64,000 nucleotides of DNA from Bacteroidota bacterium (GCA_021156365.1 JAJNDK010000004.1:255137-319136); one strand, 5' to 3'. Counted from the stretch's first letter, positions 24,010-42,521 are shown. The notes: generated by a model from the letters alone, not told the origin. Numbers and translations: made by a program.

Positions 24010-25074
24010 TTATATAGAATAAAATTCCTCTCTCAATTCTATCAATAACTCTTCCGCTACTTTCACATCGGGCTCTTCCGGCAGTGAGCTTTTTTCATAG
24101 AGCGCATCTATGTTATATACTTTCTCATTGGCCAGTGCTACCAGCTCTTCGTATTGAAAAGCACCGGAGCGGATCTTCAGCAGGAATTCACGATCAGTAC
24201 GCCGTACGTTGATAGTATTTTCCTTTGCGATCTCTTCGGCCATATTCAGCAGGCGGAAGGTATGCATCATGTTTTTGGCATCGTAATTTTTTCCGTGATC
24301 CACTGTGTTCTCGTAACGCGCTTCGTTCCGTTTGTCTACCCATTCCCAGTAAGACTTGTAATCTTTGCAGTATTTGGAATAACCGTCTTTGTTGAAGCTC
24401 ATCGTAGCAAGCGAATCCACGTTTTTCGGAACGGAGCTCAGGGAAATATCATTCGCTTCCGGCCCGGAAGAAATACCTTTCAGGTATCCTTCTTCTATCT
24501 GTGAATTGTGGAAGACTGTATATACATCGTGCATATGCGGCACGTTCACCAATCCGCAATCCTCCTGTTTGAATCCGTTTTTTCGCAGCCAGGAAGAAAG
24601 AATTATAGCGCCCTGCCCGGAAACCACGTAACAAAAATCAAGAATGGATTTGCGTTCCTTCTCCACCGGGTTAACGATCTTTTTATTGAGGCCTTTCGCT
24701 TTTTTGATCTGCGATTGTGCATAACCGGCAAAGGTTTGTTTGCAGAGCTTCGACAGGAACAATTCCGGTTTGATCCGTTCCATCAGTTTATGTTTGTGAA
24801 GCACACAGTCTGCCGGTGTTGCCAGCAATTCCAGGATATTCGGATTGTTTTTCGTCAACAGATCGATAAAACGTTTCAGCTCATAATATACAATGTCGTT
24901 GCTTTCGTTGTTTACCTGTTCAGTATATTCTAAACCATAGAAGGTTCGTTTCGGAAGTACGAACACTCCTTTAATATCTGTATCGGAAGTGGGCGTGGCA
25001 AGTCCGTATGCCCGGCTGCCGCTGATGCATTTCAGGAGAAGGGAATTGTTGGTGTCTATATCTTTAAGGTTCAT
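24010..25074 (-). CDS. Pol-beta superfamily nucleotidyltransferase (RNA 3'-end repair or CD-NTase-like; start taken at MNLKDID)
   Basis: GS...D.D catalytic motif (CISGSRAYGLATPTSDTDIKGVFV); last gene of the Rnl1-Pnkp operon. Confidence 0.55.
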   Translation of the reverse strand: MNLKDIDTNNSLLLKCISGSRAYGLATPTSDTDIKGVFVLPKRTFYGLEYTEQVNNESNDIVYYELKRFIDLLTKNNPNILELLATPADCVLHKHKLMERIKPELFLSKLCKQTFAGYAQSQIKKAKGLNKKIVNPVEKERKSILDFCYVVSGQGAIILSSWLRKNGFKQEDCGLVNVPHMHDVYTVFHNSQIEEGYLKGISSGPEANDISLSSVPKNVDSLATMSFNKDGYSKYCKDYKSYWEWVDKRNEARYENTVDHGKNYDAKNMMHTFRLLNMAEEIAKENTINVRRTDREFLLKIRSGAFQYEELVALANEKVYNIDALYEKSSLPEEPDVKVAEELLIELREEFYSI

Positions 25075-25124
25075 ACTACTAAATGTATAGAAATAAGTCC
25101 GGAAAATATCCGGGCTTATTTCTT

Positions 25125-26000
25125 TTAAAAATCTCCATAAAACACCTGGAAACATGGCAGACCAAGGTCGTTACGCCACATATCCACTACCTGGTTACGG
25201 TCGTCCAGGCAGAACTCGATGAAGTACTTGTTCGCGATCTCCTTATCGAAGATCTCGCGTTTGATGATGGAATCCTTACGCATGTCCTTAAAACGACGCA
25301 TCAGGAGCAGATCGAATTCCACCTCGTGGTTCTTCAGCCAGTTCAGTGTCTGCGGTTTATGCACATCCTGGCGTCCCGATAAAAGGATGATCGTATATCC
25401 TAACTTTTTATAGTTCTTCAATACATTCAACACCGGGTTGTTCGGCAGATCTTTCTCACAGGTAGCGGCATCGAATGGATTTCGTCCGTTCATGATACAG
25501 AGGGTTCCGTCAAGGTCGCAGAGGATCGCTTTCGGTAAAGATGCATCCTGCTCTGCATATTTCAGCTCTTTACGATAAAATTGTTTTTCCATATTCTTAA
25601 TTACTTTTTCACCTACCGGTTTCGAACGAGCAGCATCGCGCTTTATACACTCTTCCACCGTCGTGTCCATTTCTTTTACTTCCACTTCTATTTGTTCATC
25701 ATTGTTGTTTTTGCTGAACTCACGCACTAACTGGCGGATGCGTGTTTCATTCGTGGAACTCAGGTTGGTATCGTCCACGATCACGCTTTTTCCTTCTTCA
25801 AGGGCTTTCATGATCAGGAGGTCGCGTACTTTTTTTACAAACTTTTCATTTTTGTCAGATGTAAAGCCGTTGTCGAACATCATACGCAGGTCGTCGCGGT
25901 TGATGCGTTTGTACATTTCAGGATTATCCGCTACCAGTTTTTTCGCATAAGTGGATTTACCGCTTCCGGGCAAACCACGCATTAATATCACTTTTTTCAT
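25125..26000 (-). CDS. pnkp: polynucleotide 5'-kinase/3'-phosphatase (T4 Pnkp-like)
   Basis: N-terminal P-loop kinase MKKVILMRGLPGSGKST (near-identical to the T4 Pnkp N-terminus), C-terminal HAD/DxDGT phosphatase motif ILCDLDGTL. Confidence 0.8.
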   Translation of the reverse strand: MKKVILMRGLPGSGKSTYAKKLVADNPEMYKRINRDDLRMMFDNGFTSDKNEKFVKKVRDLLIMKALEEGKSVIVDDTNLSSTNETRIRQLVREFSKNNNDEQIEVEVKEMDTTVEECIKRDAARSKPVGEKVIKNMEKQFYRKELKYAEQDASLPKAILCDLDGTLCIMNGRNPFDAATCEKDLPNNPVLNVLKNYKKLGYTIILLSGRQDVHKPQTLNWLKNHEVEFDLLLMRRFKDMRKDSIIKREIFDKEIANKYFIEFCLDDRNQVVDMWRNDLGLPCFQVFYGDF

Positions 26001-26022
26001 ATTCAAATTCTTTATTTCTTTT

Positions 26023-27045
26023 TTAATTTTCTTCCGCATTGTTCTGGAACGGGCGCTCATACTCTGGTTTCAGCATTTTCCAGATCACACGTGAATGGTC
26101 TTTTTTATCTAACATCGCAAACAATACCTGTGGGTATTTGCAGGTTTGGAAGTATATGGCAGTTTCTTTACGGTCTTCCAGCTCTTTGTACTCTGCTTTT
26201 GCCACTGCTTCAATTTCTGCAAAGTTCGCATGCATACGGTCCACTGTTTCACGCACCCAGTTAAAGAATTCATCCGGCACACGTTCCAGCACTTCGTTCA
26301 ATGGCTTGTTCTCTTTCAGGTATTCCCAGATGTTGAGGGAAGAAACCTGTGTAACAACACGGTGGATACGTACATAATCATCAAATTTCACTTTGTAACG
26401 GATACCACCTTCGAATTTGATCACAAAACCTTCCTTGTTCTCTTCTTCCAGCTCTTTTAAGGCCTGCAGGCTGTTGATCCCGTCATAACGCTTCACCAAA
26501 GTGAACCCGATATCCGAAAGCGGAACATCCTTGCCTGTTGCATTGTCGGTGATCGCCAGTAATACCAGGTCTTCCTGTTCGCCGTAGTTTACCACGATAC
26601 GGTTCTCCGGATAAATGATCTCGAACAGGTAGGTTTTGGTTTTATCCAGCAATGAAAAGGTATGCGCATATTTTTCATGCAGCATTTCTGTTGCCTTTAC
26701 CGATTGTTTGCTGGTGAAGGAACCACGGGTTGCAATGGCAGGTTTATCATCGTTCCAGTACAGGATACCTAATGAACCATCCATTTTCTCATAGACCTCG
26801 AATTTTTCGTTCGGGATCTCCTGGTTCTCGTGCTCACCCAGGTTGAAGAATTTGGTAAAAGGGCGGGCTACTACTGAAAAATTTTCATCCATGATCAGGC
26901 CACGGCACTGCAAAGTAACTTCATTCCATACACGCTCGAACTGTGCCGATTGTGTATAATTGTAAATGAAGAGTTTTTCGTTCGGGTGCTTTTGTGTTAC
27001 CACGTACCCTTCGGCCATCATTTTGTTCAGTAGTTCTGTGTTCAT
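26023..27045 (-). CDS. ATP-dependent RNA ligase, T4 Rnl1-like
   Basis: nucleotidyltransferase motif I KxDG (YEKMDGSLGILY), similar length to T4 Rnl1; start taken at MNTELLNK. Confidence 0.75.
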   Translation of the reverse strand: MNTELLNKMMAEGYVVTQKHPNEKLFIYNYTQSAQFERVWNEVTLQCRGLIMDENFSVVARPFTKFFNLGEHENQEIPNEKFEVYEKMDGSLGILYWNDDKPAIATRGSFTSKQSVKATEMLHEKYAHTFSLLDKTKTYLFEIIYPENRIVVNYGEQEDLVLLAITDNATGKDVPLSDIGFTLVKRYDGINSLQALKELEEENKEGFVIKFEGGIRYKVKFDDYVRIHRVVTQVSSLNIWEYLKENKPLNEVLERVPDEFFNWVRETVDRMHANFAEIEAVAKAEYKELEDRKETAIYFQTCKYPQVLFAMLDKKDHSRVIWKMLKPEYERPFQNNAEEN

Positions 27046-27099: not shown

Positions 27100-27120
27100 C
27101 TGCGCAATCGAACTGCGTAG
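27100..27120. promoter_or_regulatory. palindromic operator CTGCGCAA-N5-(C)TGCGTAG upstream of the Rnl1-Pnkp-NTase operon
   Basis: ctgcgcaatcgaactgcgtag, 55-75 bp upstream of the Rnl1 start; same motif at 33156, 33257, 37392 and 37504. Confidence 0.6.
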
Positions 27121-27274
27121 ATAAAAATAATTTGTTAAAAAAATCACGAATCACTCAAAAAAGCCTGTTTCTGAGTAATTTAAACAGCAGGCCCGGATCG
27201 GAATTAAGAATTAATTTTTGTATTTTTATGTATATACCACCGTTATAGCATCAAAACACAGCAATTCAAAACCT

Positions 27275-30200
27275 ATGAACAAAAATCTATCCTCCTTGTT
27301 ATTGCTGGCTGGTGTCGCTGCAATGACCTATGCACTCTTTTCCAAAAGTGACCCAGCGTCCGAGACTGACCTGGTGAGCGAAACACCGGATACAACAATG
27401 GTATTGCCTGCCGATCCTTCTACTTTTCCGGCTTTACTGGTCCACCGGATTGAAGGAGACAGTACTTCTGTGCCACTGCACATGAGCGGCCTGAAGCTGG
27501 ATGTAAAAGTAGTAGGGAATATTGCGCTTAGCACGATGGAGATGACTTTTTACAATGATCTCGATCGCGTGCTGGAAGGGGACCTGTGTTTTCCCTTAGG
27601 TGAGGGGCAGACCGTATCCGGATTCGGGATGGAAACGGATGGAGTAATGCGGGATGGCGTAGTGGTGGAAAAGGCAAAAGCACGGCAGGTTTTTGAATCT
27701 GTTGTGAGAAGAAGGATCGACCCGGGATTACTGGAATGGACGAAAGGGAATAATTTCAAAACACGTGTGTACCCTATTCCTGCACATGGAAGCAAACGTG
27801 TTCGCATCAGCTTCGAGCAGGAGCTGATCTCTACGGTCAGTGGTTTTGTTTACCTGCAACCGATGCTGTTTAAAGACAAGATCGAGAAATTCGATCTTCG
27901 CGCAGAGGTGATTCAGCAATCGGTAAAACCAAGGTCTTCGAAAAATGCAGTGTCCATAGAATTCGACGAGTGGAACAACTCTTGGGTGGCAGAAAAGCGC
28001 CTGGAGAATTTCACAGGTAATAAAGCCCTTTCATTTGAGATACCAAAGGCAGAAGATATGCAACGTATTTTTGTAGAGAACACCGGCTATTTTTATCTCA
28101 CACTTGATCCGGTTAAATACATCCGCCCTAAAAAACTGCCTTCTTCTGTGTGCCTGCTTTGGGATGTTTCGGGATCAGGGCTGAACCGCGACATTCAAAA
28201 GGAGGAAGCCTTGCTGGACGTTTATTTCAAGAAGCTACAAAATGCAGGTATTCATCTGGTGACCTTTAGTAATACTATTCATACGGAATCGGATTTTATT
28301 CTCAGCAAAGGAAACTGGCAGGCACTGAAGGAAGAGCTGGACAGACAGGTGTTTGATGGAGGCACACAGTTAGGTGCGATCGATCTGAAAAAATACAAAG
28401 CTGAGGAGATTCTCCTGTGCTCGGACGGGCTCAGCACTTTCGGCGATGCAGACATGAAGCTCTCAAAAATCCCGGTTAATGCTATTTGTTCCTCGCAGTC
28501 GGCCGATCATTCCATGTTGAAATACATTACGCAGGCAACGGGCGGACATTATATAAATGCGCTTTCTACTACAAACGAAGAAGCGATGAAGCTCATCGGT
28601 ACAGAATCGTATCGGTTCTTAGGAGCAAGCCCGGGTGTGGGAAGGGTTTCCCAATTGTATCCTTCCATTCCTACGGATTTCAACAGAACAATTGCTGTAG
28701 CAGGAAAGATAGAAAGCTCTTCAGCGGAAGTCACATTGAATTTCGGTTTCGGGGATGAGATCGTCTATTCGAAAAAAGTGCTTGTACATGCTGCAACGCA
28801 GATCAAAGACGGTTTTGTGAAAAAGCTGTGGGCGCAAAAAAAGATCAGCGAACTCGATATGCGCTACGAAAAAAACAAGAAGGAAATAACTGCATTGGGA
28901 AAAGAATGCTCGATCGTTACACGCAACACTTCTTTGCTGGTGCTCGACAGGCTGGAAGACTATATTCAGCATCATGTAGTTCCTCCACAAAAAGAATGGC
29001 AGGAACAATATTATACAGCTATAAATGAACAGGTCGAAAATGTTGCTGCCGACAAGAACGCTCATCTCGAAGAAGTGGTGCAGGCCTTTCAGCAACGGAT
29101 CGATTGGTGGAACACCAGCTTTAAGTACAGGAATTATAAGAAGGAGCAGAAACCAAAGGTTGCACCAACGGTGCGTTTTTCTAATCCTGTTGTAACAGAT
29201 GATGCAACGGAGACTGAAACGGCAGCTTCTGACACATTCCGGGCTTTCAGAGGAAATGGGTTTGCGACTGCAGACTCCGTTTCATTTACACCAGGACGTG
29301 TCAATGAAACTTCGAATAATCTTGTTAACGCCGAAACCCAGAACTCACCCGTTACCGGCTGGTCATACAATGATCCGCAGAACGGAGGATTTGACCATGT
29401 TCCTTACGAAGAACAGGAAACAACTGCCGGAACAGCTTACACCTGGAGCTTTAATGGAACATCGGACGGGACAGTCGCGAATCAGTCGGGAGCATATGCC
29501 ACAACGTTAAATACCACCAGTTATAATGTAACAGTAACGGATGCCAATGGAGCTACAATGGCTACAAGGTCGGCCAACTTTCGCATGGAAGCCGGAGTAG
29601 TATCGAAGATCAACCTGAAGGCCTGGGATCCGAAAACACCTTATATGGAAAAGCTCAAAAAAGCAAAAGAACAAAACAGGTATGCGACTTATCTGGATTT
29701 ACGGAAAACCTATAAGGATCAGCCCGCTTTCTTTCTCGATGCCGGAAACTACTTTATCGAAAAGGGAGATAAGACAAATGGTCTTCGGGTACTTTCCAAT
29801 CTTGCCGAGTTTAATACAGAAGATCATAAGGCACTTCGTGTGTTGGCACATAAGCTGCAACAGGCGGGTTTCACCGATCTTGCTATTGCAATGTTTAAAG
29901 AAGTATTGAAGATCCGGGAAGAAGAACCACAGTCTTATCGCGACCTTGGTCTTGCACTGGCTGATAAAAAAGAGTACCAGGGCGCAGTGGATATGCTCTG
30001 CAAAGTCGCGAATAAACGATGGGACAGCCGTTTTCCCGGGATCGAAGTACTTGCAGCCAATGAGATCAATTCCCTGATCGCCAGCAGCGGAGCGAAAGTA
30101 AAATTAGATTCTCTCGATAAACGCCTGATCAAACCAATGCCGGTGGATGTGCGGATCGTGATCAACTGGGAGTCGGACAATTGTGATATGGATCTATGGG

Positions 30201-30511
30201 TGACGGATCCTGTAGGAGAGCAATGCATGTACAACCACAATGAAACACAGAACGGCGGCAGGATCTCGCAGGATTTTACAGGAGGTTACGGTCCGGAGGA
30301 ATTCATTGTAAAAAAAGCGCTGAACGGAAAATACCTCGTTCAGGTCAATTATTACGGCACGCGCGAGCAAACACTTTTAGGACCAACAACAGTTCAGGCG
30401 GAGCTATATACCAATTACGGAAAACCGAATCAGAAAAAACAGGAAGTCACACTCCGGCTGAAAGAGGATAAGGAAGTAATTGATATCGGCGCATTGGCTT
30501 TTGGGAAATAG
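27275..30511 (+). CDS. VIT-vWA-TPR-DUF2135 large protein (YfaP-like C-terminus)
   Basis: transmembrane/signal segment, VIT domain (LKLDVKVVGNIALSTMEMTF...RVYPIPAHGSKRVRISFEQ), vWA (LLWDVSGSG), TPR-like helices, C-terminal DUF2135-like beta domain (VRIVINWESDNCDMDLWVTDP...YGPEEF). Confidence 0.7.
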   Translation: MNKNLSSLLLLAGVAAMTYALFSKSDPASETDLVSETPDTTMVLPADPSTFPALLVHRIEGDSTSVPLHMSGLKLDVKVVGNIALSTMEMTFYNDLDRVLEGDLCFPLGEGQTVSGFGMETDGVMRDGVVVEKAKARQVFESVVRRRIDPGLLEWTKGNNFKTRVYPIPAHGSKRVRISFEQELISTVSGFVYLQPMLFKDKIEKFDLRAEVIQQSVKPRSSKNAVSIEFDEWNNSWVAEKRLENFTGNKALSFEIPKAEDMQRIFVENTGYFYLTLDPVKYIRPKKLPSSVCLLWDVSGSGLNRDIQKEEALLDVYFKKLQNAGIHLVTFSNTIHTESDFILSKGNWQALKEELDRQVFDGGTQLGAIDLKKYKAEEILLCSDGLSTFGDADMKLSKIPVNAICSSQSADHSMLKYITQATGGHYINALSTTNEEAMKLIGTESYRFLGASPGVGRVSQLYPSIPTDFNRTIAVAGKIESSSAEVTLNFGFGDEIVYSKKVLVHAATQIKDGFVKKLWAQKKISELDMRYEKNKKEITALGKECSIVTRNTSLLVLDRLEDYIQHHVVPPQKEWQEQYYTAINEQVENVAADKNAHLEEVVQAFQQRIDWWNTSFKYRNYKKEQKPKVAPTVRFSNPVVTDDATETETAASDTFRAFRGNGFATADSVSFTPGRVNETSNNLVNAETQNSPVTGWSYNDPQNGGFDHVPYEEQETTAGTAYTWSFNGTSDGTVANQSGAYATTLNTTSYNVTVTDANGATMATRSANFRMEAGVVSKINLKAWDPKTPYMEKLKKAKEQNRYATYLDLRKTYKDQPAFFLDAGNYFIEKGDKTNGLRVLSNLAEFNTEDHKALRVLAHKLQQAGFTDLAIAMFKEVLKIREEEPQSYRDLGLALADKKEYQGAVDMLCKVANKRWDSRFPGIEVLAANEINSLIASSGAKVKLDSLDKRLIKPMPVDVRIVINWESDNCDMDLWVTDPVGEQCMYNHNETQNGGRISQDFTGGYGPEEFIVKKALNGKYLVQVNYYGTREQTLLGPTTVQAELYTNYGKPNQKKQEVTLRLKEDKEVIDIGALAFGK

Positions 30512-30519: not shown

Positions 30520-31065
30520 TTATTTCCGGACCGTATCCCATTTCCCAAAATGCTGCAGGAAGATCTTCGCAATATTCCGTGCATCATCGATCCCGCGGTG
30601 GTGTGTGCCCTCAAGTTCGATCTTTTCCATCCACAGTGCGCCTGCCATTCCGGTATGTTTTTTCAGGCCTTTGATCCCGGTGTACTGATGTTTGAGACTG
30701 ATATGCTTTTCGAGCCAGGAGGTTTCCAGTTCGTGGAGCTCGCAATCGTTCTTCAGCTGCACGCGGTCATAATGGCCCCAGCTGCAGAGCAGGTAATCTT
30801 CTGTACCAATCCAGTTTCTGAATTTTTTCAGCACTTCCGGGAATGTTTCCGCAGCATCTACCTGCTCCTGGGTGATAGTTGTGAGTTTGATGCAGAAAGG
30901 CGAAAGCTGTGTATCCAGTTTGGGTTTCACAAATGCACAGAATTCGCTTTCAATAATTTTGTTTTCGTTGATGCAAAGCGCACCGATCTCAATGATCTCG
31001 TTTTTCTTTGATGGATCCCTCGGCTCCCAACAGGAGGCTTCGAGATCGAGTATAATGTATTTCAT
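30520..31065 (-). CDS. DEDDh 3'-5' exonuclease (ERI-1/KapD-like)
   Basis: Exo I DLEAS, Exo II, Exo III H-x4-D (HHRGIDDARN); 181 aa. Confidence 0.75.
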   Translation of the reverse strand: MKYIILDLEASCWEPRDPSKKNEIIEIGALCINENKIIESEFCAFVKPKLDTQLSPFCIKLTTITQEQVDAAETFPEVLKKFRNWIGTEDYLLCSWGHYDRVQLKNDCELHELETSWLEKHISLKHQYTGIKGLKKHTGMAGALWMEKIELEGTHHRGIDDARNIAKIFLQHFGKWDTVRK

Positions 31066-35400: not shown

Positions 35401-35447
35401 CCGCGAACGGCATCTTTCAATAGGTTTGTCAGGAGCAATTGCGATCC

Positions 35448-35589: not shown

Positions 35590-35660
35590 GATGAGGGCAG
35601 GGGATACGCAATGAGGATTTGCACCTCTTCCTGATTGTAATGTCAGGACCCTTCCCCTTC
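35590..35660 (-). ncRNA. D-armless tRNA-like RNA with TGCAAAT T-loop (candidate Y-RNA-like)
   Basis: closing stem GGGGAAG/..TATCCCC, anticodon-like arm TCCTGA-CATTACAA-TCAGGA, T-like arm GAGG-TGCAAAT-CCTC; paralog of 35448-35520; ~150 bp downstream of rsr. Confidence 0.35.
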
Positions 35661-35744
35661 AATGGCGCGAAGTAGCCCTTTTCTGCGGCATTCTGGCAGC
35701 AATGTTTTTTTGTCTTTGAATAATATGTCAATGAACGAATTTCT

Positions 35745-35803: not shown

Positions 35804-37321
35804 TTATAATTCAATTTGTTTGATTTTTTCTACTGCACCCACACCATTTTCGATAGCGTGCAATACATCAAACACTTTGTCCGACCAACCTGCGATCAGG
35901 TGTACATCGTTTTTCTGAACGTTCAGCGGCGTGTTTCCATGGCCCGCAAGATCGAACAGGTACAATTTTGCTTTTGGCGCGATCGCTTTGTAGGCATTCC
36001 AGGATTTCTCCAGGGAAGAACCCGCATGACGGCTATCCCACAGCTGGCAGTCGGTGAACAGCATCACTTTATCCATCACCACGTTTCGTGCGATCAGGTC
36101 ATCGATCACTTTGTAACCATTGGTCGAGTAACCCACTTCACCTTCACGTTTGTAGTATTGGTCCACATTGGCCAGTACTCCGCGGTTTGGCAGGTTGATC
36201 ACTTTCCAGGTATCACCGAACATACCTGATACCACACGCTTACATTTCGACTGCATCAGCATACCCAGCATCAGGCCGATGTCGTAAAACATCACTTTGC
36301 TTTTAGCCGATACGGCTTGCTGCATCGAACCGGATACGTCACATGCTACCAGCACGGCAGTGTTCTCGTCGAAACCTTTCAGGTTCTTAACGCTTGCCAC
36401 CACTGCATCTTCCAGCGCATTCAATACCATGGTCACGAACTCCGAGTTCATCACTTTGATCTCACGGTGCGCTGCGAGGAAACGGAATGGCAACTGTTTC
36501 GAGTTTGCCACCGCAGTCTCATTCGACAGGTAAGCGCATACTTTTTTCACATGCGAAGCAGATACTTTTGCTTCCAGTATGTTACGCAGGTTACGCATCA
36601 AAGCCATATAACCAACTTTACCGCTGTCGATCAGTTCTTCCCATTTAGCACGGAAAGCTGCAGCCTTTTCTTTATCGTTGGCATATTTTGTCTGACCCAA
36701 TGCCGACAGCTCAGTTTCCCAGGTGTATGGAACAGCCAGTTCGTTCGCAGCTATTTTATTGAACACCACTTGCTGGTTCTCGTCTTTCGCTTTTGGATGC
36801 ACTATGAACAGGGCGTCACGCAATTTCACTTCCGCATCCCGATTGTATTTTGCGAACTGGTATTCATCGAAACGGTTGAAAGATACTGCCAGCCCTTTCT
36901 GGATCTGCTTCGACAGCTTATTCAGCTTTTTAGTACCGTTACGTTTGTTGGCCAGCTGGTAATATGCCAGGAGCTCGGTGATCTCATCGGCACGTTTTAC
37001 CACGCCCGATACGGTTTTACCTACCACCGCATCACCGGAGTTCAGTTTGGCCAGTTCTACCGCCAGTACCATTGGGATCGAACGCATATACATTTCGTTA
37101 CGTGCATACACTGCCAGTTTCGCTACGTATTGTGCATCGTTTTTCAACATCAGCTCACGGATACGTGTCAAACGGGTATCTGCTTTCTCATAGAAGCTGT
37201 CGTTTAGGCCCGCAGTTACTACCGCTGAGTATAGCTCCAGCTCAGGAGTCAGTTGGAATGCTTTTGCACCTTCATAGTTTGTAACTACGTTTTCTGTTTT
37301 TTTGAAGATGTTGAATTTCAT
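35804..37321 (-). CDS. rsr: Ro60-like (TROVE domain plus vWA/MIDAS) ribonucleoprotein Rsr
   Basis: 505 aa; N-terminal TROVE-like helical repeats (NYEGAKAFQLTPELELYSAVVTAGL...MRSIPMVLAVELA); C-terminal vWA MIDAS (VLVACDVSGSMQ). Confidence 0.8.
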   Translation of the reverse strand: MKFNIFKKTENVVTNYEGAKAFQLTPELELYSAVVTAGLNDSFYEKADTRLTRIRELMLKNDAQYVAKLAVYARNEMYMRSIPMVLAVELAKLNSGDAVVGKTVSGVVKRADEITELLAYYQLANKRNGTKKLNKLSKQIQKGLAVSFNRFDEYQFAKYNRDAEVKLRDALFIVHPKAKDENQQVVFNKIAANELAVPYTWETELSALGQTKYANDKEKAAAFRAKWEELIDSGKVGYMALMRNLRNILEAKVSASHVKKVCAYLSNETAVANSKQLPFRFLAAHREIKVMNSEFVTMVLNALEDAVVASVKNLKGFDENTAVLVACDVSGSMQQAVSAKSKVMFYDIGLMLGMLMQSKCKRVVSGMFGDTWKVINLPNRGVLANVDQYYKREGEVGYSTNGYKVIDDLIARNVVMDKVMLFTDCQLWDSRHAGSSLEKSWNAYKAIAPKAKLYLFDLAGHGNTPLNVQKNDVHLIAGWSDKVFDVLHAIENGVGAVEKIKQIEL

Positions 37322-37391: not shown

Positions 37392-37412
37392 CTGCGCAAC
37401 AGAATTGCGCAG
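37392..37412. promoter_or_regulatory. perfect palindromic operator CTGCGCAA-cagaa-TTGCGCAG upstream of rsr
   Basis: 71-91 bp upstream of the rsr start; 8-bp arms are exact reverse complements. Confidence 0.65.
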
Positions 37413-37503: not shown

Positions 37504-37524
37504 TTGCGCAAATAGATTGCGCAG
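37504..37524. promoter_or_regulatory. palindromic operator TTGCGCAA-ataga-TTGCGCAG upstream of the WYL regulator gene
   Basis: 51-71 bp upstream of the WYL gene start; likely autoregulatory site. Confidence 0.65.
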
Positions 37525-37574: not shown

Positions 37575-38588
37575 ATGCCCATTAATAAATTAGCCCTTGT
37601 TCGCTACAAAACCATCGACAATTGTTTACAGAACCGTTTTCGCAAATGGACGCTGGACGACCTGATGGAGGCGGTTTCCGAAGCTTTGTATGAATACGAA
37701 GGTATCACCAAAGGCATCAGCCGGAGAACCATACAGCTTGATCTGCAAAACATGCGCAGTGAGAAACTTGGTTACAATGCACCGATCGTAGTAACGGATA
37801 AAAAGTTCTACAGTTACGAAGACAAGCAGTACAGCATCACCAGTATTCCTTTAACAGAACAGGATATGGGCACGTTGAACGAAGTGTTGGGTGTTCTGAA
37901 ACAATTCAAAGGCTTTGGTTATTTCCAGGAACTTACCGGGATGGTAACCAAGCTCGAGGACAAGCTTTATAAGCAACAGCATAAAGGCAAATCATATATC
38001 GATTTTGAAAAAAACGAATTGCTCAAAGGTTTAGAGTTTATTGATCCTTTGCACAAAGCGATCATCAATCGTAAAACGATCGAGATCACTTATCAATCCT
38101 TTAAAGCGAATCAATCACAGCAGATCGTTTTTTATCCTTATCTACTGAAAGAATACCGCAATCGCTGGTTCCTCTTCGGTATGAACAGAAAAGGCAGCTC
38201 AGCGATGATCCTTGCACTGGACCGCATTGAGAAGTTCAAAGAGCTCTCCGAAAAATATGTGAAAGCACCTTTCGATGCGCACATGTTTTTCGATGATGTG
38301 ATCGGTGTAAGTAAAGCGCCCGGACAAAAACCATCAACCATTGTGATGAAGATCGACAAAGAAAATGCACCTTATGTGATCACCAAGCCGATCCATCCTT
38401 CGCAAAAGATCCTGAAGGAAGAACCCGACGGGATCTTATTCAGCATTGATGTTGTCTGGAACTTTGAGCTGGAACGTGAATTGCTTGGCTTCGGTGAGAA
38501 GCTGCACATACTTTCTCCGCGTAGGCTTGCCGGAAAAATACAATCGCGTTTGAAACACACATTACAAAAATATCAAAGAACGGAATAA
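37575..38588 (+). CDS. HTH-WYL-WCX domain transcriptional regulator
   Basis: N-terminal wHTH (LALVRYKTIDNCLQ), WYL signature (IVFYPYLLKEYRNRWFLFGMN), C-terminal WCX-like region. Confidence 0.8.
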   Translation: MPINKLALVRYKTIDNCLQNRFRKWTLDDLMEAVSEALYEYEGITKGISRRTIQLDLQNMRSEKLGYNAPIVVTDKKFYSYEDKQYSITSIPLTEQDMGTLNEVLGVLKQFKGFGYFQELTGMVTKLEDKLYKQQHKGKSYIDFEKNELLKGLEFIDPLHKAIINRKTIEITYQSFKANQSQQIVFYPYLLKEYRNRWFLFGMNRKGSSAMILALDRIEKFKELSEKYVKAPFDAHMFFDDVIGVSKAPGQKPSTIVMKIDKENAPYVITKPIHPSQKILKEEPDGILFSIDVVWNFELERELLGFGEKLHILSPRRLAGKIQSRLKHTLQKYQRTE

Positions 38589-38594
38589 TACGTG

Positions 38595-38670
38595 TCGGGA
38601 AAGCAGGATTTGAACCTGCGAACTCTCGCTTCCAGGGCGAGCGGGGACGGCCTGACTCCCCCATTTCCCG
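38595..38670 (-). tRNA. tRNA-Pro(UGG)-like, C at position 33
   Basis: acceptor CGGGAAA/TTTCCCG (C1:G72 as in bacterial tRNA-Pro), D-arm GGGG-AGTCAGGCCGT-CCCC (11-nt loop), anticodon arm CTCGC-CCTGGAA-GCGAG, T-arm GCAGG-TTCAAAT-CCTGC. Confidence 0.5.
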
Positions 38671-38681
38671 TTTTATCTTTG

Positions 38682-38755
38682 TCGATCAATGAGGACTCGA
38701 ACCTCAAACCTTCTGATTCGTAATCAGGTGCTCTATCCAATTGAGCTATTGATCG
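38682..38755 (-). tRNA. tRNA-Arg(ACG)
   Basis: acceptor CGATCAA/TTGATCG all Watson-Crick, D-arm GCTC..GAGC, anticodon loop TTACGAA, T-arm TGAGG-TTCGAGT-CCTCA. Confidence 0.7.
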
Positions 38756-38756
38756 G

Positions 38757-38832
38757 TGGTGGACAAGGGTGGGATCGAACCACCTTCTCCGGATTTTCAG
38801 TCCGGCGCATAGACCAACTCTGCTACTTGTCC
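38757..38832 (-). tRNA. tRNA-Phe(GAA), CCA encoded
   Basis: acceptor GGACAAG/CTTGTCC, anticodon arm CCGGA-CTGAAAA-TCCGG, T-arm GGTGG-TTCGATC-CCACC, ACCA 3' end; only 1 nt from the preceding gene. Confidence 0.6.
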
Positions 38833-38956
38833 ATTTCATCAACACTTTATGCAAGCCACCTTCCGGATTTTAAAGTGGCTGCTTTTGCCACTTTGAGGTC
38901 GCTATTCGCTCGGTTCAATCCGCTGCATTGACCATCTTTGCTACATTTCCATTTTG

Positions 38957-39029
38957 GGTGAGATAGGGGAATTGAACCCGTATCTGCGGCATCACAAGCC
39001 GATGTGTTGACCATTACACCAATCTCACC
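38957..39029 (-). tRNA. tRNA-His(GUG) with encoded G-1 and C73
   Basis: G-1 plus acceptor GTGAGAT/ATCTCAC, D-arm GTGT-AATGGTCA-ACAC, anticodon arm TCGGC-TTGTGAT-GCCGC, T-loop TTCAATT. Confidence 0.55.
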
Positions 39030-39067
39030 ATGTTTCAATTGTAGCAAAACGTTCGCTGCAATTGTAG

Positions 39068-39143
39068 TCGGGAAGGCTGGATTCGAACCAGCGAACTCCT
39101 GCGTCCAAGGCAGGCGGGGACGACCTGACTCCCCTACTTCCCG
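39068..39143 (-). tRNA. tRNA-Pro(UGG), paralog of 38595-38670
   Basis: acceptor CGGGAAG/CTTCCCG, D-arm GGGG-AGTCAGGTCGT-CCCC, anticodon arm CCTGC-CTTGGAC-GCAGG, T-arm GCTGG-TTCGAAT-CCAGC. Confidence 0.55.
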
Positions 39144-39172
39144 TAGTTTTTTTATCGGTCTACAAACCGAAG

Positions 39173-39267
39173 TGGGAAAGACAGTCACGCTATAGCGTGA
39201 GAACCTGCTAAGCCTTGCGGCGACGGAGTTACAGTCCGTCTCAACTCACCATCGTTGACGCTTTCCC
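39173..39267 (-). ncRNA. tRNA-Tyr(GUA)-like gene with T-arm replaced by a 6-bp/TATA-tetraloop palindromic hairpin
   Basis: acceptor GGGAAAG/CTTTCCC, class-II D-arm TCAA-CGATGGTGAG-TTGA, anticodon arm ACGGA-CTGTAAC-TCCGT, variable arm GCC-GCAA-GGC, then TCACGC-TATA-GCGTGA where the T-arm should be. Confidence 0.4.
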
Positions 39268-39274
39268 ATTTTTG

Positions 39275-39348
39275 TACCCTCTACAGGATTCGAACCTGCA
39301 CTCTCTTGTTTCTAAGACAAGCGCCTTTGCCTGTTTGGCTAAGAGGGC
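39275..39348 (-). tRNA. tRNA-Leu(UAG)-like lacking the long variable arm
   Basis: acceptor GCCCTCT/AGAGGGT, 3-bp D-stem with long D-loop GCC-AAACAGGCAAA-GGC, anticodon arm CTTGT-CTTAGAA-ACAAG, 5-nt variable AGAGT, T-arm GCAGG-TTCGAAT-CCTGT. Confidence 0.45.
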
Positions 39349-39356
39349 ATATTTTG

Positions 39357-39439
39357 CGGAAGGTATAGGAATCGAACCCTGCCCTTGTGGACCGCCCAAG
39401 ATTTCAAGTCTTGTTGTACACCATTGTACGCTACCTTCC
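39357..39439 (-). tRNA. tRNA-Ser(UGA)-like (class II length)
   Basis: acceptor GGAAGGT/ACCTTCC, D-stem GTAC/GTAC, anticodon arm CAAGA-CTTGAAA-TCTTG, long variable region, weak T-stem around TTCGATT. Confidence 0.45.
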
Positions 39440-39440
39440 G

Positions 39441-39535
39441 TTGCGGAGAATTGAGTTCCCGACACTCATCCCGACGATACTGTCAGGACACCATGCTTAG
39501 CAGGCAGGTCCGGGCCCCGCCCGGTTAATTCTCCA
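39441..39535 (-). ncRNA. structured RNA with tRNA-like closing stem (GGAGAAT/ATTCTCC) and no T-loop
   Basis: internal hairpins CCGGGC-GGGG-CCCGG and direct repeat TCGGGA..TCGGGA. Confidence 0.2.
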
Positions 39536-39542
39536 TATGTTG

Positions 39543-39615
39543 TACCCCCTGCAGGATTCGAACCTGCATGCTCTTGTGTCTGAGACAAGCGCCTTTACCG
39601 TTTGGCCAAGAGGGC
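39543..39615 (-). tRNA. tRNA-Leu(CAG)-like lacking the long variable arm (paralog of 39275-39348)
   Basis: acceptor GCCCTCT/AGGGGGT, D-arm GCC-AAACGGTAAA-GGC, anticodon arm CTTGT-CTCAGAC-ACAAG, T-arm GCAGG-TTCGAAT-CCTGC. Confidence 0.45.
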
Positions 39616-39616
39616 G

Positions 39617-39725
39617 TTGGTGGGAGGCAGGATCTTTAACTGTCAGGCGACAGAGTATCCTGCAGACAGACGGTTCTTCCACGCCCATCCGGATCTCCCA
39701 AGTGTTTCGGAAGATCTGCTCCCCG
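39617..39725 (-). ncRNA. ~105-nt structured RNA closed by a 12-bp stem (GGGGAGCAGATC/GATCCTGCCTCCC)
   Basis: internal hairpin CTGTC-AGGC-GACAG; no tRNA motifs. Confidence 0.2.
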
Positions 39726-39735
39726 TATTTTTTTG

Positions 39736-39807
39736 TTGTCAGGGATGGATTCGAACCACCGCTTTCAGAGCCAAATTCTGACGTCCTGCCAATTAGACGA
39801 CCTGACA
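39736..39807 (-). tRNA. tRNA-Gln(UUG)
   Basis: acceptor TGTCAGG/CCTGACA, D-arm GTCT-AATTGGCA-GGAC, anticodon arm TCAGA-ATTTGGC-TCTGA, T-arm GGTGG-TTCGAAT-CCATC. Confidence 0.6.
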
Positions 39808-39958: not shown

Positions 39959-40960
39959 TTATTCATCGTATTTGATCAAAAAATCCGGATTGATCGCTTT
40001 GAAGGATACACGACCCTGCAAACTGTATTTGTCTGTCATTTCCTCAACAGGCCTGATAACAATACCTTCGGCGATAGTATCTGCGTGAAGCACCGATCTC
40101 ATTTTGGATTTAGCGATTAGTTTTTCGATATCGCTTTCCAGCATGTAACCTTCCTCCAATACAGGAACCATTTTCAGCTCTAGGTCGTTCAGCAGTTGCT
40201 TTGCTTCCTTCAGTGACAAATAGCTGTAGCTATCGATCGCAAACACGTTGAAGAAATGCACATGCTGACCTTTCAGTTTGTATTTATTCTTCTGAATGCC
40301 TTCACCTATGATCTCGCCCTGCAATGCAATGTTCGAACCCAGTTGTTTCAGCTTTTCTTCCAGCTTATTTTCTACTGCAAACTTCCACATGGAATTGCTT
40401 TCGTCAAACAGCAGATCCAGGTTCCTGGAGCAAACACCGAACTCACCATCTTTGAAGTAGAAAGTAGCTGAACTACCATCTAATTTTTCGGTTACGTAGC
40501 ATGCGATCCCTTCATATTTGTCCAATACCTTCTGCAATACCTGCACCCTGGTCTCATCTGTTTTAGGGATGAAAGAAGGGAACATACCTTTTACCTCGCC
40601 TGCTAAATTCGCAGGAATTGGCGGCTCGAACTTCGTTACGCCTAAGATGTCGGTTACGTCCAGGTCTTCTTCCACCTGTATTCCTTCCGGAAGTACATTT
40701 AATGGAAAGCAGATACCCTGTGAGATCTGGCCACGCAGCCTGATGGTTTTGATCCTGTTGCTTTTTGCACGAACAAATTCAAACTCCGGCTTATCAGGCA
40801 TCACGCTATCGATCTCGCAATACACACAGAGATCATCGATGGCAAAATCACCTTTACGGATCACTAACTGCCAACCCAACACGCTTGCTTTTTCAATGGC
40901 ATCGGCGCCTTCTATCGGCTCTATATTTTTTATCCTTTGTATGGATGCTAATTTTCTCAT
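39959..40960 (-). CDS. ATP-dependent RNA ligase, Rnl5/DraRnl (DRB0094) type: N-terminal OB fold plus nucleotidyltransferase
   Basis: N-terminal OB-like region (MRKLASIQRIKNIEPIEGADAIEKASVLGWQLVIRKGDF), motif I KxDG (TEKLDGSSATFYF); start taken at MRKLAS. Confidence 0.7.
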   Translation of the reverse strand: MRKLASIQRIKNIEPIEGADAIEKASVLGWQLVIRKGDFAIDDLCVYCEIDSVMPDKPEFEFVRAKSNRIKTIRLRGQISQGICFPLNVLPEGIQVEEDLDVTDILGVTKFEPPIPANLAGEVKGMFPSFIPKTDETRVQVLQKVLDKYEGIACYVTEKLDGSSATFYFKDGEFGVCSRNLDLLFDESNSMWKFAVENKLEEKLKQLGSNIALQGEIIGEGIQKNKYKLKGQHVHFFNVFAIDSYSYLSLKEAKQLLNDLELKMVPVLEEGYMLESDIEKLIAKSKMRSVLHADTIAEGIVIRPVEEMTDKYSLQGRVSFKAINPDFLIKYDE

Positions 40961-41097
40961 ATTTACCTCCCTTGTCCTGACATTATCGTCAGGGTTTACC
41001 CCGACACTTGTCGTCGTTAATTTTGTTTTAATTTTCTTTCGCACGGGCTGCACCACCTCTCCCTCTACAGTGCAGCCCCGATCAGCTTTCGATGATA

Positions 41098-41859
41098 CTA
41101 ATTGTTATTTAAGATCCTGTGGCTCAGGAAAGCTCTGTCCTTTGTGAAGATGGGAACTTCTTTACTTACCCATCTGCTCCGGATCGCACCTTCTCTTTCG
41201 TCCCGATAGCTATCGGGATCTTTTTCGATGATCCTCCCTCTTTTGTATTTCGGTGCATAGTCGTTCCAGTTAATACCTTTCTGAAAGATCAGCTCCTGTT
41301 GCTCGTCACTGCTTTTGCCACTCAACTCTTTGTGGCTATACAGAGACTGTGCTACGGAAGCGATACTGTTCCGGGTGGTATCCTGTTGTCTCCAGATGAA
41401 GTAGTTTTCTACTTCTGCTTTGGACGGGATCTGGAACACCCTGCTGTCGAACAATGCTACCTTCTCCGGTCGCAGTTGATTGAACCTTACAGTTGCAAGG
41501 CTTGCAGACACGCTGCAGATCTTCTGGATATTTCCTTCGAACCATGCACTGGTATTGATGTCGTCAAAGTCAGTCAAAAGGATAGAGATCTCATCGGACT
41601 GTACGAAGGCAAACTTTGCACCCTGGATATTCTGGCAGAGATAAGCGGCAGTTTCATCCATGTCGTTTATCAGCTTATCATCGAAGGGTTTTTCCAAACC
41701 CCTGGTATACGTGTGAAAGGCTTTACCATCTACCCGGATCAATGTGTATGTTCTCCGCGGAATGAAGTACCGTGTCCGGTCTTCATAAAACGCTTTCATC
41801 CTGTCACCTAATGTATCTTTCATTTCTTTTTTGTTAACTGTTAGTATTTTCTGAGCCAT
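41098..41859 (-). CDS. Thg1-like protein (tRNA 3'-5' nucleotidyl polymerase)
   Basis: Thg1 catalytic region LIRVDGKAFHTYTRGL...FVQSDEISILL; start uncertain (MAQKIL or MKDTLG); contains an in-frame copy of the palindrome TCCCGATAGCTATCGGGA encoding DPDSYRD. Confidence 0.75.
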   Translation of the reverse strand: MAQKILTVNKKEMKDTLGDRMKAFYEDRTRYFIPRRTYTLIRVDGKAFHTYTRGLEKPFDDKLINDMDETAAYLCQNIQGAKFAFVQSDEISILLTDFDDINTSAWFEGNIQKICSVSASLATVRFNQLRPEKVALFDSRVFQIPSKAEVENYFIWRQQDTTRNSIASVAQSLYSHKELSGKSSDEQQELIFQKGINWNDYAPKYKRGRIIEKDPDSYRDEREGAIRSRWVSKEVPIFTKDRAFLSHRILNNN

Positions 41860-41861
41860 AA

Positions 41862-41895
41862 AAAAACCCGGGCATTTTGCGTGCCCGGGTTTTTC
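41862..41895 (-). terminator. hairpin terminator (CCCGGGCA..TGCCCGGG plus T-run) immediately upstream of the Thg1-like start
   Basis: seen in sequence. Confidence 0.5.
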
Positions 41896-42521
41896 TTGTT
41901 CAAGTGTGTTCACTTAAACCGGGACGCGATGATGCGCAAATAGTCTACTCCCGTTGGCGGGCACTGTTCCGATCTTGTCTGCCTGCCGGCAGATGGATAT
42001 CGAAAGAATGGATCGTGTATATCGTTTTTCGTTCATTTTGTTGTAAAATAAAAAAGGTCCCGAAAATTTTCGGGACCTTTCTGTAATTATTCTGTATTTA
42101 ATAATTACTCCCCGAGCGTGTACAACATGCCTGAAAACCCTTTCGGATCTAGACTGTTATGGCGGTATGTAATTACTAAATTTTGCATTTCTATTGTTTT
42201 GATGATGCAAATATAAACACAAAAAATTACTGAATGCAAATTATTTTGAAAATATTTTTTCCAAATCAAAAAATAAAACAAAGTGCTACCTCCGGATCCA
42301 TTGATAATAAAGGGAAGCATCGTCTTGTTTAAAATGAGTATAAATTTCTGACACTACCGGATTAAATTTTAAGCAAATCCATTTCAGTGATTTGATTTTT
42401 AATGATCGAATCAAAGTGAAAATAATTTCCTTTTTTCATGAAGGTATCGGGTAAAAGGATTAAGAATAGCCTGTAATCAGAAGGCTCCACACACCTGAAT
42501 ATTTTTCAGTACCTTTGAAAT

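Follow-up and report, generated by a model that had tools for sequence, protein, structure and literature searches.

We describe an island of ~18 kb (24.0-41.9 kb) within a 64,000-nt window of a Bacteroidota bacterium genome (GCA_021156365.1, JAJNDK010000004.1:255137-319136; positions are counted from the first nucleotide of the window). In this island, genes for RNA-end repair are found together with rsr, which encodes an orthologue of Ro60, with a series of candidate Y RNAs, with two tRNA arrays, and with a gene for a transcription factor of the WYL type that is divergent from rsr. On balance, we favor the hypothesis that this is a chromosomal, WYL-controlled RNA-damage locus of Bacteroidota whose products would repair, discard or replace damaged RNA. 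Copies of a single palindromic operator precede three blocks of the window, namely rsr, the block that begins with an SPFH gene, and the Rnl1-Pnkp-RlaP genes. Rsr and the WYL factor are near-constant among related loci and the remainder is variable; therefore, we view the locus as a conserved core with modular cargo. The roles of bacterial Ro60 and Y RNAs, like those of long accessory tRNA arrays, are little understood, and here they are encoded beside five RNA-end-repair activities.

For comparison, we searched 10 kb on either side of the gene in 80 genomes, drawn from the 583 or more Bacteroidota species genomes in which an Rsr homologue with 65% identity or higher is encoded. Two closer metagenomic relatives, L083 and L085, lie outside these 80 loci, which come from the genome collection. 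Proteins were identified by profile and sequence matches to Pfam, NCBIfam, PDB and PADLOC, and RNAs were identified with ARAGORN and Rfam.

Organization of the Locus

The island is made up of three minus-strand gene blocks that are interrupted by two plus-strand genes. In transcription order, block A encodes an Rnl1-family ligase, the kinase-phosphatase Pnkp and the nucleotidyltransferase RlaP; the genes overlap, and therefore constitute one operon. This block is followed by a plus-strand VIT/vWA gene. Block B leads from rsr through ~950 nt of structured RNA and tRNA array 1 to the genes for SPFH, S24-like and DEDDh exonuclease proteins. Block C consists of the genes for a bacterial Thg1-like protein and an Rnl5 ligase, followed by tRNA array 2. 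An initial annotation had named most of these proteins, and Pfam, NCBIfam and PDB profile searches recovered every one that it named at the place given, all on the minus strand except the WYL factor, which is on the plus strand. It had passed over the VIT/vWA/TPR/DUF2135, SPFH/Band-7 and S24-like genes within the span, and also a type XIII retron that lies just beyond it.

Rsr, the WYL Regulator and the Operator

The core genes and the operator sites are as follows.

35804 to 37321, minus strand: Rsr, the Ro60 orthologue, with TROVE and vWA domains (Pfam TROVE 101 bits; weak vWA_Ro60 match)
37575 to 38588, plus strand: WYL+WCX transcription factor of the DriD/PafBC/BrxR/CapW type (Pfam WYL and WCX; PADLOC WYL models)
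37393-37411 and 37505-37523, no strand: two perfect operators, TGCGCAA-N5-TTGCGCA, in the divergent intergenic region of rsr and the WYL gene
33157-33175 and 33258-33276, no strand: two operator-like palindromes with two mismatches each, in array 1, upstream of a YrlA-like RNA and the SPFH gene
27101 to 27119, no strand: operator-like palindrome with two mismatches, ~55 nt upstream of the Rnl1 ATG, with TTTG 13 nt downstream

Residues 13-495 of Rsr align over the full length of solved TROVE proteins (PDB 9l5y/9kop), and the protein has the TROVE and vWA domains and the length of ~500 aa that characterize the family. The WYL gene was detected near rsr in 60 of the 80 loci, and in 34 of them it is divergent and no more than 600 bp upstream. 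A profile built from 21 WYL orthologues matches structures of DriD at 4e-7 and next those of PafBC, BrxR and CapW; the protein yielded no Pfam helix-turn-helix hit. The WYL factor is the presumed operator-binding sensor, a role predicted from the conserved palindrome beside its gene.

The operator is a 19-bp palindrome. The window has five sites with at most two mismatches, compared with 0.28 expected, and all five fall within the island at intergenic or promoter positions. Among the 80 loci, a site with at most one mismatch is present at 57, with 63 sites upstream of rsr and 19 just past the rsr stop codon. Elsewhere the operator occurs with cargo: L034, L038 and L035 each have it independently some 50 nt ahead of Rnl1, L083 has it upstream of the exonuclease gene, and in L025 it separates the WYL gene from a tRNA array; similarly placed sites are found upstream of rsr in L011 and L015. 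In 75 of 103 sites (loci L003-L085) the tetranucleotide TTTG is found at +13/14 from the operator, and the three promoter-proximal sites of the window (37393, 33157 and 27101) share this spacing. The TTTG is usually part of a conserved TTTGyAyCGTyA, and most sites lack TAnnTTTG, the -7 element expected in Bacteroidota. The fixed position of the operator upstream of a promoter element suggests that the regulator acts by activation rather than by occlusion.

Y RNAs Downstream of rsr

Five entries describe the structured RNAs around rsr and array 1.

34861 to 35700, minus strand: Y-RNA array 3' of rsr (Rfam sub-threshold YrlA; conserved in 13-28 loci)
35700-35575, minus strand: element X, a structured RNA directly 3' of the rsr stop codon (alignment A2; conserved in ~28 loci)
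35283-35180 and 34976-34861, minus strand: YrlA-like RNAs in the Y-RNA array (Rfam sub-threshold)
34773-34610, minus strand: two minimal Y-RNA units (CGUA-N9-UACUUC-type module)
32871 to 32981, minus strand: YrlA-like/tRNA-like RNA 5' of the SPFH gene (Rfam YrlA hit 32981-32884, 35.9 bits; tRNA 31.7 bits)

At the gathering threshold Rfam detects tRNAs alone in the window, and the YrlA family (RF02553), with a gathering score of 69 bits, is reached by none of the three best matches (38.4, 35.9 and 31.5 bits). Covariation supports these RNAs. The YrlA-like RNA at 35283-35180 is conserved in ~24 related loci; in alignment A4 (19 loci), 19 of its 26 pairs have changed on both sides and 93% of cells are paired, compared with 35-49% when the pairing partners are slid, and none of 500 shuffles reached these values. 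It has the form of a YrlA-type RNA, with a long closing stem around a T arm, a short hairpin and a D arm, and it lies less than 4 kb from rsr. Element X, which is below the threshold of every Rfam family, shows the same kind of evidence (both sides have changed in 14 of 27 pairs, 97% of cells are paired, and no match was obtained in 500 shuffles); its fold has a closing stem, and the hairpin GAGGUGCAAAUCCUC in it resembles a T loop. The GGTGCAAATCC motif recurs, in part, at ~35480.

Each Y-RNA unit opens with a CGUA-N9-UACUUC-type module, mostly in two to eight tandem copies just 3' of rsr. Repeats of this module are seen in 85 of 86 loci, and for this reason we regard Y-RNA arrays as a general feature of this rsr family. 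About eight Y-RNA-like units are present in the island. The structured RNAs 3' of rsr are thus candidate cognate Y RNAs with support from covariation, and the analysis yields two covariation-supported RNA families, both of which score below the thresholds of all Rfam families.

RNA-Repair Enzymes and Their Gene Blocks

The protein genes of the three blocks, together with the plus-strand gene after block A, are the following.

24010 to 25155, minus strand: RlaP-family Pol-beta nucleotidyltransferase, last gene of the Rnl1-Pnkp-RlaP operon (Pfam PF10127, 96 bits)
25125 to 26060, minus strand: polynucleotide 5'-kinase/3'-phosphatase of T4 Pnkp/Pnkp1 architecture (Pfam AAA_33 and HAD_PNKP, 175 bits)
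26023 to 27045, minus strand: Rnl1-family ATP-dependent RNA ligase (Pfam RNA_lig_T4_1, 69 bits)
27218 to 30511, plus strand: VIT/vWA/TPR/DUF2135 protein of 1097 aa (Pfam, NCBIfam)
30520 to 31065, minus strand: ERI1-like DEDDh 3'-5' exoribonuclease (Pfam RNase_T)
31081 to 31398, minus strand: 105-aa S24 peptidase-like protein (LexA/UmuD type), GNSM motif present (Pfam S24, 26 bits)
31454 to 32596, minus strand: SPFH/Band-7 (slipin-like) protein, a putative scaffold (Pfam Band_7, 103 bits)
39959 to 41056, minus strand: Rnl5-family RNA ligase of the DraRnl/NgrRnl type, OB fold at the N terminus (Pfam PHA02142 and RNA_ligase)
41098 to 41859, minus strand: bacterial Thg1-like protein, a predicted 3'-5' polymerase (Pfam Thg1 and Thg1C)

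The Pnkp protein is a single polypeptide of ~300 aa with an N-terminal P-loop 5'-kinase and a C-terminal HAD 3'-phosphatase, as in enzymes of the T4 type. Its nearest solved structure is Pnkp1 of the Capnocytophaga Pnkp1-Rnl-Hen1 complex (4xrp, 1.5e-70), and T4 Pnk (1ltq) matches over the full length at 3.9e-43. The adjoining ligase matches the nucleotidyltransferase domain of T4 Rnl1 (2c5u) at 1.9e-18, and its motif I, KMDGSL, aligns with KEDGSL of T4. It is placed at the level of the Rnl1 family, given that its score against TIGR02308 is 84 bits for an equivalog cutoff of 242 and that the PDB alignment ends at T4 residue 255, before the C-terminal tRNA-specificity domain. From the sequence and the gene call, its start is likely the ATG at ~27045 rather than the GTG at 27147. 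The Pfam match of RlaP is partial (residues 36-153 of 381, profile positions 17-140 of 249). The rlaP gene overlaps that of Pnkp in the same operon as Rnl1, so that it has the expected linkage to an RNA ligase, and RlaP homologues are found near rsr in ~17 of the 80 loci. In single-sequence searches, the RlaP, WYL and S24 proteins gave no PDB match.

The second ligase is assigned to Rnl5 with a TIGR02306 score of 211 bits, above the cutoff of 151, and a match to NgrRnl (5cot) at 1.6e-66 over residues 32-363; it has the N-terminal OB and nucleotidyltransferase domains of its class and is without a C-terminal domain. The nearest PDB entry to the Thg1-like protein is the bacterial Thg1-like protein (TLP) BtTLP (4kgk, 8.5e-66), the next-best chains scoring 2e-17 or weaker, which by sequence places it nearer to bacterial TLPs than to eukaryotic Thg1. 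The DEDDh exonuclease is closest to ERI1 (1w0h, 1.5e-26), with far weaker matches to DnaQ and PolC. Its gene recurs by rsr in many loci, and the S24-like gene is its conserved partner in L008, L009, L024, L041, L056 and L085. The SPFH gene, which has a terminator-like hairpin on its 3' side (31442-31421), is also present in L024, L056, L077, L078 and L083.

The VIT/vWA gene lies beside the DEDDh gene and an exosortase gene in L083 and was not seen at the remaining loci. We considered that its product might be a Ro-like partner and rejected this, as it resembles an exosortase-type surface protein; we take it for a probable passenger, of surface or exosortase type and unrelated to the rest.

tRNA Arrays and a Palindromic Repeat

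ARAGORN predicts 17 intact tRNAs, which form two arrays of eight and nine; every one is on the minus strand. Rfam finds 15 of the 17 at the gathering score (it misses Trp and Ser) and adds three weaker tRNA hits.

33284 to 34847, minus strand: tRNA array 1, eight intact and five disrupted genes (ARAGORN and Rfam)
Array 1, intact, minus strand: Lys-UUU, Thr-UGU, Trp, Gly-UCC, Ile-GAU, Met, Val-UAC, Arg-UCU
Array 1, disrupted, minus strand: Lys-CUU 34605-34462, Asn 34318-34234, Asp 34067-33978, Glu 33850-33766, Lys-UUU-like 33455-33356
38594 to 39807, minus strand: tRNA array 2, nine intact genes and a disrupted tRNA-Tyr (39267-39172)
Array 2, intact, minus strand: Gln-UUG, Leu-CAG, Ser-UGA, Leu-UAG, Pro-UGG (two copies), His, Phe, Arg-ACG
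39541-39440, minus strand: non-canonical Ser-GCU-like tRNA in array 2 (alignment A6)

The initial annotation had counted about 30 tRNA and tRNA-like elements. This number holds, and is composed of the 17 intact tRNAs, about six disrupted ones, the Y-RNA-like units (about eight) and at least one non-canonical tRNA. The last of these, at 39541-39440, carries a GCU anticodon and a long variable arm, and its acceptor, D and T stems measure 8, 6 and 4 bp, respectively. Its conservation extends to five loci, with 13 covarying pairs, and its place in the array is the same in L083, L056, L085 and L008. Owing to its stem lengths and long variable arm, it resembles the shapes of tRNA-Sec or of allo-tRNAs. 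The adjoining tRNA-Ser(UGA), at 39439-39356, has the top score against the Rfam tRNA-Sec model. Two spacers of array 2 on the minus strand (39734-39616 and 38955-38833) are strongly folded and cloverleaf-like, without canonical T loops, and the former is weakly conserved in L083.

The arrays have the properties of long accessory tRNA arrays (L-arrays), that is, long co-oriented runs of genes that are rarely periodic and that are accessory or horizontally spread: here eight and nine genes, and 22, 10 or 0-5 tRNAs in relatives. They are accessory, being kept, shortened or lost in close relatives and partly decayed in this genome. The order of their tRNAs recurs across families, and their anticodons mostly begin with U34. 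A UAU anticodon on tRNA-Ile is unusual in bacteria. Such genes are found in six related arrays (L085 2200-2273, L008 8161-8234, L056 2537-2610, L019 4349-4422, L021 9759-9832 and L025 9775-9848).

Alignment with intact orthologues in L083 shows that six tRNA genes of the window carry an insertion, which is in the T loop of the Tyr, Asp, Glu and Lys-UUU-like genes and in the anticodon loop of the Asn and Lys-CUU genes. The insert is a palindrome in five of the disrupted genes and an inverted repeat of ~70 nt in Lys-CUU, whose derivative (34605-34462) is still scored by Rfam as a 143-nt tRNA (42 bits). The hairpin CCCGATAGCTATCGGG has six copies in array 1. The 18-nt palindrome TCCCGATAGCTATCGGGA is found at 33372, 33781, 33997, 34270, 34977, 35375 and 41204, with a variant at 39185-39200; the 18-kb island holds all seven copies, and the remaining 46 kb of the window has none. 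The palindrome has inserted into tRNA genes, at the T, D or anticodon loop, and also into the Thg1-like gene, where an in-frame insert (41200-41219) adds four residues (DPDSYRDE, compared with E----NFE in L083 and L085).

The tRNA-like elements of the island had been described as arm-substituted tRNA-like genes. They are not a designed class: they resolve into covariation-supported Y RNAs and tRNA genes hit by a generic palindrome. As the palindrome is also present in the Thg1-like open reading frame (ORF), inside ordinary intergenic repeats of Flavobacterium, and in metagenome copies that are mostly distant from tRNAs, we regard it as a generic short palindromic repeat and not as a designed tRNA arm. 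A metagenome scan returned 132 copies, of which 91 had no nearby tRNA and were outside long ORFs, and ~26 were inside long ORFs. Together with the intact L083 tRNAs, these observations led us to reject CCCGATAGCTATCGGG as an island-specific RNA module or decoy arm as the main interpretation. The further idea that the palindromes are reverse-transcribed "RNA repair scars" tied to the neighboring retron was left unsupported by the metagenome scan. A short palindromic repeat is thereby shown to be able to insert in tRNA loops and, in frame, in a protein gene.

Conservation among Bacteroidota and Neighboring Genes

Around rsr, genes for DEDDh, S24 or SPFH proteins are found in many of the 80 loci, ten or more tRNAs in eight, Rnl1 and/or Pnkp in eight, and Rnl5 in one; the Thg1-like gene, the VIT/vWA gene and the retron are found in none within the 10 kb searched. 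The genes that are enriched around rsr are almost all on the rsr strand. The two closer relatives retain more. In L083, whose Rsr is 90% identical, the order is RtcB-PrfH-M41 peptidase, Thg1-Rnl5, 11 tRNAs, WYL, Rsr, Y RNAs, 11 tRNAs and SPFH, and then, further on, the exonuclease and VIT/vWA genes. In L085 (Rsr 83% identical), it is Thg1-Rnl5, nine tRNAs, six unrelated genes, WYL, Rsr, tRNA-Lys, S24 and exonuclease. Synteny of the locus thus holds over short evolutionary distances and gives way to a mosaic over long ones. In the synteny check, the earlier proposal of a single conserved island stood in part: Rsr and WYL are near-constant and close relatives keep the order, but the remainder is variable among genomes.

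The six L085 genes between array 2 and the WYL gene (3007-8712) include ATP-grasp, HAD hydrolase, sulfatase-like and two radical SAM genes, and may be a peptide- or nucleotide-modification cassette. In L083, RtcB, PrfH (RF-1 family) and the M41 peptidase (724-4860) occupy the Thg1-side position that the retron fills in the window. They look, by their sequence assignments, like a further RNA-repair and ribosome-rescue module joining the island.

42785-49256, minus strand: type XIII retron (PADLOC RT_XIII 610, SWIM_XIII 762 and WGR/HEAT_XIII 931 bits, genes in a row)

This retron, which is known here from its three protein genes, lies directly beyond the Thg1-like gene. We considered it as a member of the system and rejected it, in that its homologues are absent from 80 of 80 loci and L083 has RtcB-PrfH in its place; it looks specific to this genome and an incidental neighbor. 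The sequence between the island and the retron (41914-42784) has a GC content of 36%, two small ORFs and a strong terminator (42082-42051). On the other side of the island, a minus-strand gene at 8804-9841 encodes an Ntox23 bacterial toxin-domain protein and is directly downstream of, and overlaps, the HrpB helicase gene.

A Model of RNA Repair, Disposal and Replacement

We propose a model with a constant core, consisting of rsr, tandem Y RNAs and a divergent DriD-like WYL factor, and with variable cargo. The WYL factor would bind the palindrome, sense single-stranded nucleic-acid fragments that arise from RNA or DNA damage, and turn the blocks on; the position of the operator upstream of the promoter element would fit an activator like DriD or PafBC. 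Pnkp would convert breaks with 2',3'-cyclic-phosphate and 5'-OH ends to 3'-OH and 5'-phosphate ends, RlaP would replace nucleotides missing from 3' ends, the Thg1-like enzyme would refill acceptor stems truncated at the 5' side, and the ERI1-like exonuclease would trim 3' ends. Rnl1 would then join breaks in loops, and Rnl5 nicks in duplex RNA. Rsr and Y RNAs, perhaps with SPFH, would capture misfolded or unrepairable RNAs and pass them to a nuclease, such that Rsr, Y RNAs and the ERI1-like nuclease would dispose of RNAs beyond repair. Replacement tRNAs would come from the two co-oriented arrays.

The initial annotation had suggested that the region serves to repair and replace tRNAs. Our analysis supports this idea, in that the enzyme set fits a published syntax of RNA-repair systems, the kinds of gene recur at rsr, the operator is found at three blocks, and two relatives keep most of the order. 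Going further, the WYL activator might sense fragments of damaged RNA, as a counterpart of RtcR, and drive a Bacteroidota-wide regulon for repair, disposal and spare tRNAs; we put this forward tentatively, as a possible but doubtful extension. If true, it would be the first case of tRNA repair and tRNA replacement placed on one sensor, and it would give a physiological role to bacterial Ro60 and Y RNAs and to long tRNA arrays. The operator occurs in cultivable species of Flavobacterium, Chryseobacterium and Pedobacter, and so can be tested there. Locus L038, where it precedes Rnl1-Pnkp, is that of Flavobacterium pectinovorum, L081 is a Chryseobacterium locus with a tRNA array, and the complete genomes of Flavobacterium sp. 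RS13.1 (NZ_CP182487) and of a Chryseobacterium (NZ_CP180265) also carry the locus. The locus further offers tests of the signal that is read by the WYL domain, of the choice among repair, degradation and replacement of tRNAs, and of the use of the array tRNAs.

Several points weigh against the hypothesis of a single WYL-controlled RNA-damage locus. That the WYL protein acts on the operator is a prediction drawn from their positions alone, and the operator stays at rsr where no WYL gene adjoins (L030 and L077). Each of the three weaker operator sites has two mismatches. The Thg1-Rnl5-array 2 block is preceded by a half-site only (41933), and a terminator-like hairpin separates Rnl5 from array 2; co-regulation of this block is not supported by the operator evidence. 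DriD and PafBC sense single-stranded DNA, which implies that the trigger may be DNA rather than RNA damage. The six disrupted tRNAs point to weak selection on the replacement arm in this genome. Finally, the cargo varies greatly among genomes, and the full combination seen here may therefore be an accretion and not a selected unit.

This last point can be developed into an explanation of its own, in which the functional unit is rsr with its Y RNAs and the WYL factor, situated at a variable hot spot where horizontally spread, decaying tRNA arrays have gathered and where the ligase, Thg1 and retron blocks are independent neighbors, the region being like a defence or stress island. The mosaic over the 80 loci, in which no Thg1-like gene and a single Rnl5 were found and Thg1 is otherwise seen in the two close metagenomic relatives, is what such a process would leave, as are the unrelated VIT/vWA (exosortase-type) gene in the middle of the island, the retron at its edge with RtcB-PrfH in its place in L083, the six unrelated genes between array 2 and WYL in L085, the six tRNA genes disrupted by repeat insertions, and a Thg1-Rnl5-array 2 block without a full upstream operator. 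It accounts poorly, however, for operators upstream of Rnl1-Pnkp in four independent genomes and also upstream of the SPFH and exonuclease blocks, for RNA-repair genes and tRNAs that are found within 10 kb of rsr far above chance and are co-oriented, for a tRNA order that recurs across families, and for a composition that is fully ameliorated. We consider this accretion rather unlikely, though it is the alternative to which we give the most weight. Less probable is a DNA-damage response in which the WYL factor senses single-stranded DNA, the S24 and DEDDh (DnaQ-like) proteins act on DNA, and Rsr aids recovery from irradiation or oxidative stress. In Deinococcus, Rsr contributes to recovery from irradiation or oxidative damage. 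The nearest solved relatives of the regulator are activators that sense single-stranded DNA, the S24-like and DEDDh genes are paired in many loci, and DNA-damaging agents induce Salmonella rsr-rtcBA (PMC7790460, PMC9879122). Against this, the signal in Salmonella after DNA damage is still tRNA cleavage (PMC7790460), the exonuclease is nearest to ERI1 exoribonucleases and matches DnaQ and PolC far more weakly, and the remaining enzymes all act on RNA ends. This alternative bears on the trigger more than on the function.

It was also suggested that the region could be a captured phage counter-defence cassette, to which we add the variant of a prophage remnant. Jumbo phages carry tRNAs, Rnl1/Rnl2/RtcB, Pnkp, RlaP, Thg1 and TROVE (PMC7824862), TROVE homologues are found in 101 phage records, and the arrays resemble phage tRNA sets in their mostly U34 anticodons. 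Nevertheless, the Ro60 homologues of phages are at most 35% identical and the array DNA matches phage over single tRNAs only, observations on which we reject a recent phage origin; no structural, integrase or replication genes of phages were seen among the scanned ORFs of the window; and hundreds of Bacteroidota species carry the rsr-WYL core on the chromosome. As had been noted, neither an integrase nor a transposase was seen within the island. The accompanying claim that the island is AT-rich must be dropped: its GC content is 44.8% and that of the remaining window 44.3%, within the 43.5-45.2% spanned by 18-kb sliding windows, and the GC content at third codon positions (GC3) is 0.52 in the RNA genes and 0.51 in flanking genes. 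A foreign composition is rejected on both measures, and with composition showing no deviation, we regard capture from a phage as very improbable. The hypothesis that we favor thus remains that of a chromosomal RNA-damage locus under the control of the WYL factor.

Relationship to Known Systems

Much of this set of genes has precedents. Burroughs and Aravind reportedly set out, in 2016, a general syntax for RNA-repair systems in which Ro/Y RNA and SPFH scaffolds take part. As far as that work is cited in PMC7824862, its syntax covers the combination of ligase, Pnkp, RlaP, Ro/Y RNA and SPFH. Thg1 with kinase and ligase has been published (PMC2904730), as has the biochemistry of RlaP, which is also encoded by T4 (PMC12776372). 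Long tRNA arrays are known to have RNA-processing neighbors (PMC8421152), the Anabaena TrcR repressor regulon contains a long tRNA array, rtcB and slipin (PMC10272220, PMC8421152), Salmonella has RtcR and rsr-yrlBA-rtcBA, with tRNA fragments as the inducer (PMC7790460), and WYL and CARF factors control some RNA-repair pathways (PMC9503650). The suggestion that the combination is undescribed therefore needs to be narrowed, as much of the set is published, but one part of it stands: in the literature searched, we found no paper on Bacteroidota in which tRNA arrays and Ro60 are linked with a WYL regulator. The same search did not find a WYL regulator with an operator at rsr, long tRNA arrays physically embedded in such a locus, or two 5'-phosphate ligases together with Thg1-like, RlaP and ERI1-like proteins.

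One close parallel is with the Salmonella rsr-yrlBA-rtcBA/RtcR system (PMC7790460, PMC4201824), in which Ro60 and tRNA-like Y RNAs likewise occur alongside RNA-end enzymes and ligases, with a divergent ligand-sensing regulator and a response to damaged tRNA. The regulator is a CARF/sigma-54 enhancer-binding protein there, whereas a WYL/WCX factor and a palindromic operator are found here. The ends are handled by RtcB/RtcA there and by the 5'-phosphate, ATP-dependent ligases Rnl1 and Rnl5 with Pnkp, RlaP and Thg1-like proteins here (RtcB being present in L083), and the locus described here has many Y RNAs and embedded tRNA arrays. With T4 Pnkp and Rnl1, and with Capnocytophaga Pnkp1-Rnl-Hen1 (4xrp), it shares a kinase-phosphatase of the same architecture beside a separate RNA ligase. 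It differs in having no Hen1 methyltransferase and in being chromosomal with an operator, by which control is predicted; its ligase matches T4 Rnl1 over the nucleotidyltransferase domain alone and does not match the ligase chain of 4xrp.

As in L-arrays and the Anabaena TrcR regulon, there are accessory arrays of ~10-26 tRNAs with RNA-processing neighbors, for which a role in recovery from translational stress has been proposed (PMC8421152, PMC10272220). In Anabaena, a single transcription factor co-controls array, RNA ligase and slipin/SPFH. TrcR is a ribbon-helix-helix repressor, however, in a different phylum, whereas here the regulator is a WYL protein and the parts are clustered around rsr and the Y RNAs; among the loci, it is in L025 that the operator is placed for direct control of a tRNA array. 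With DriD, PafBC, BrxR and CapW, the regulator shares a presumed HTH-WYL-WCX order, a gene divergent from its target, with likely autoregulation, and a palindromic operator placed as in activators. The similarity is weak (best E value 4e-7, by profile only), and the targets here are RNA-repair genes and rsr. Jumbo phages (PMC7824862) share the "repair and replace" logic as well as Rnl1, Pnkp, RlaP, Thg1, TROVE and tRNAs, but in them the genes are scattered and used against host defence, whereas here they are clustered, chromosomal, widespread by inheritance within a single phylum and accompanied by a host regulator. The locus thus represents a variation on RNA-repair operons that are already known rather than a new kind of system.

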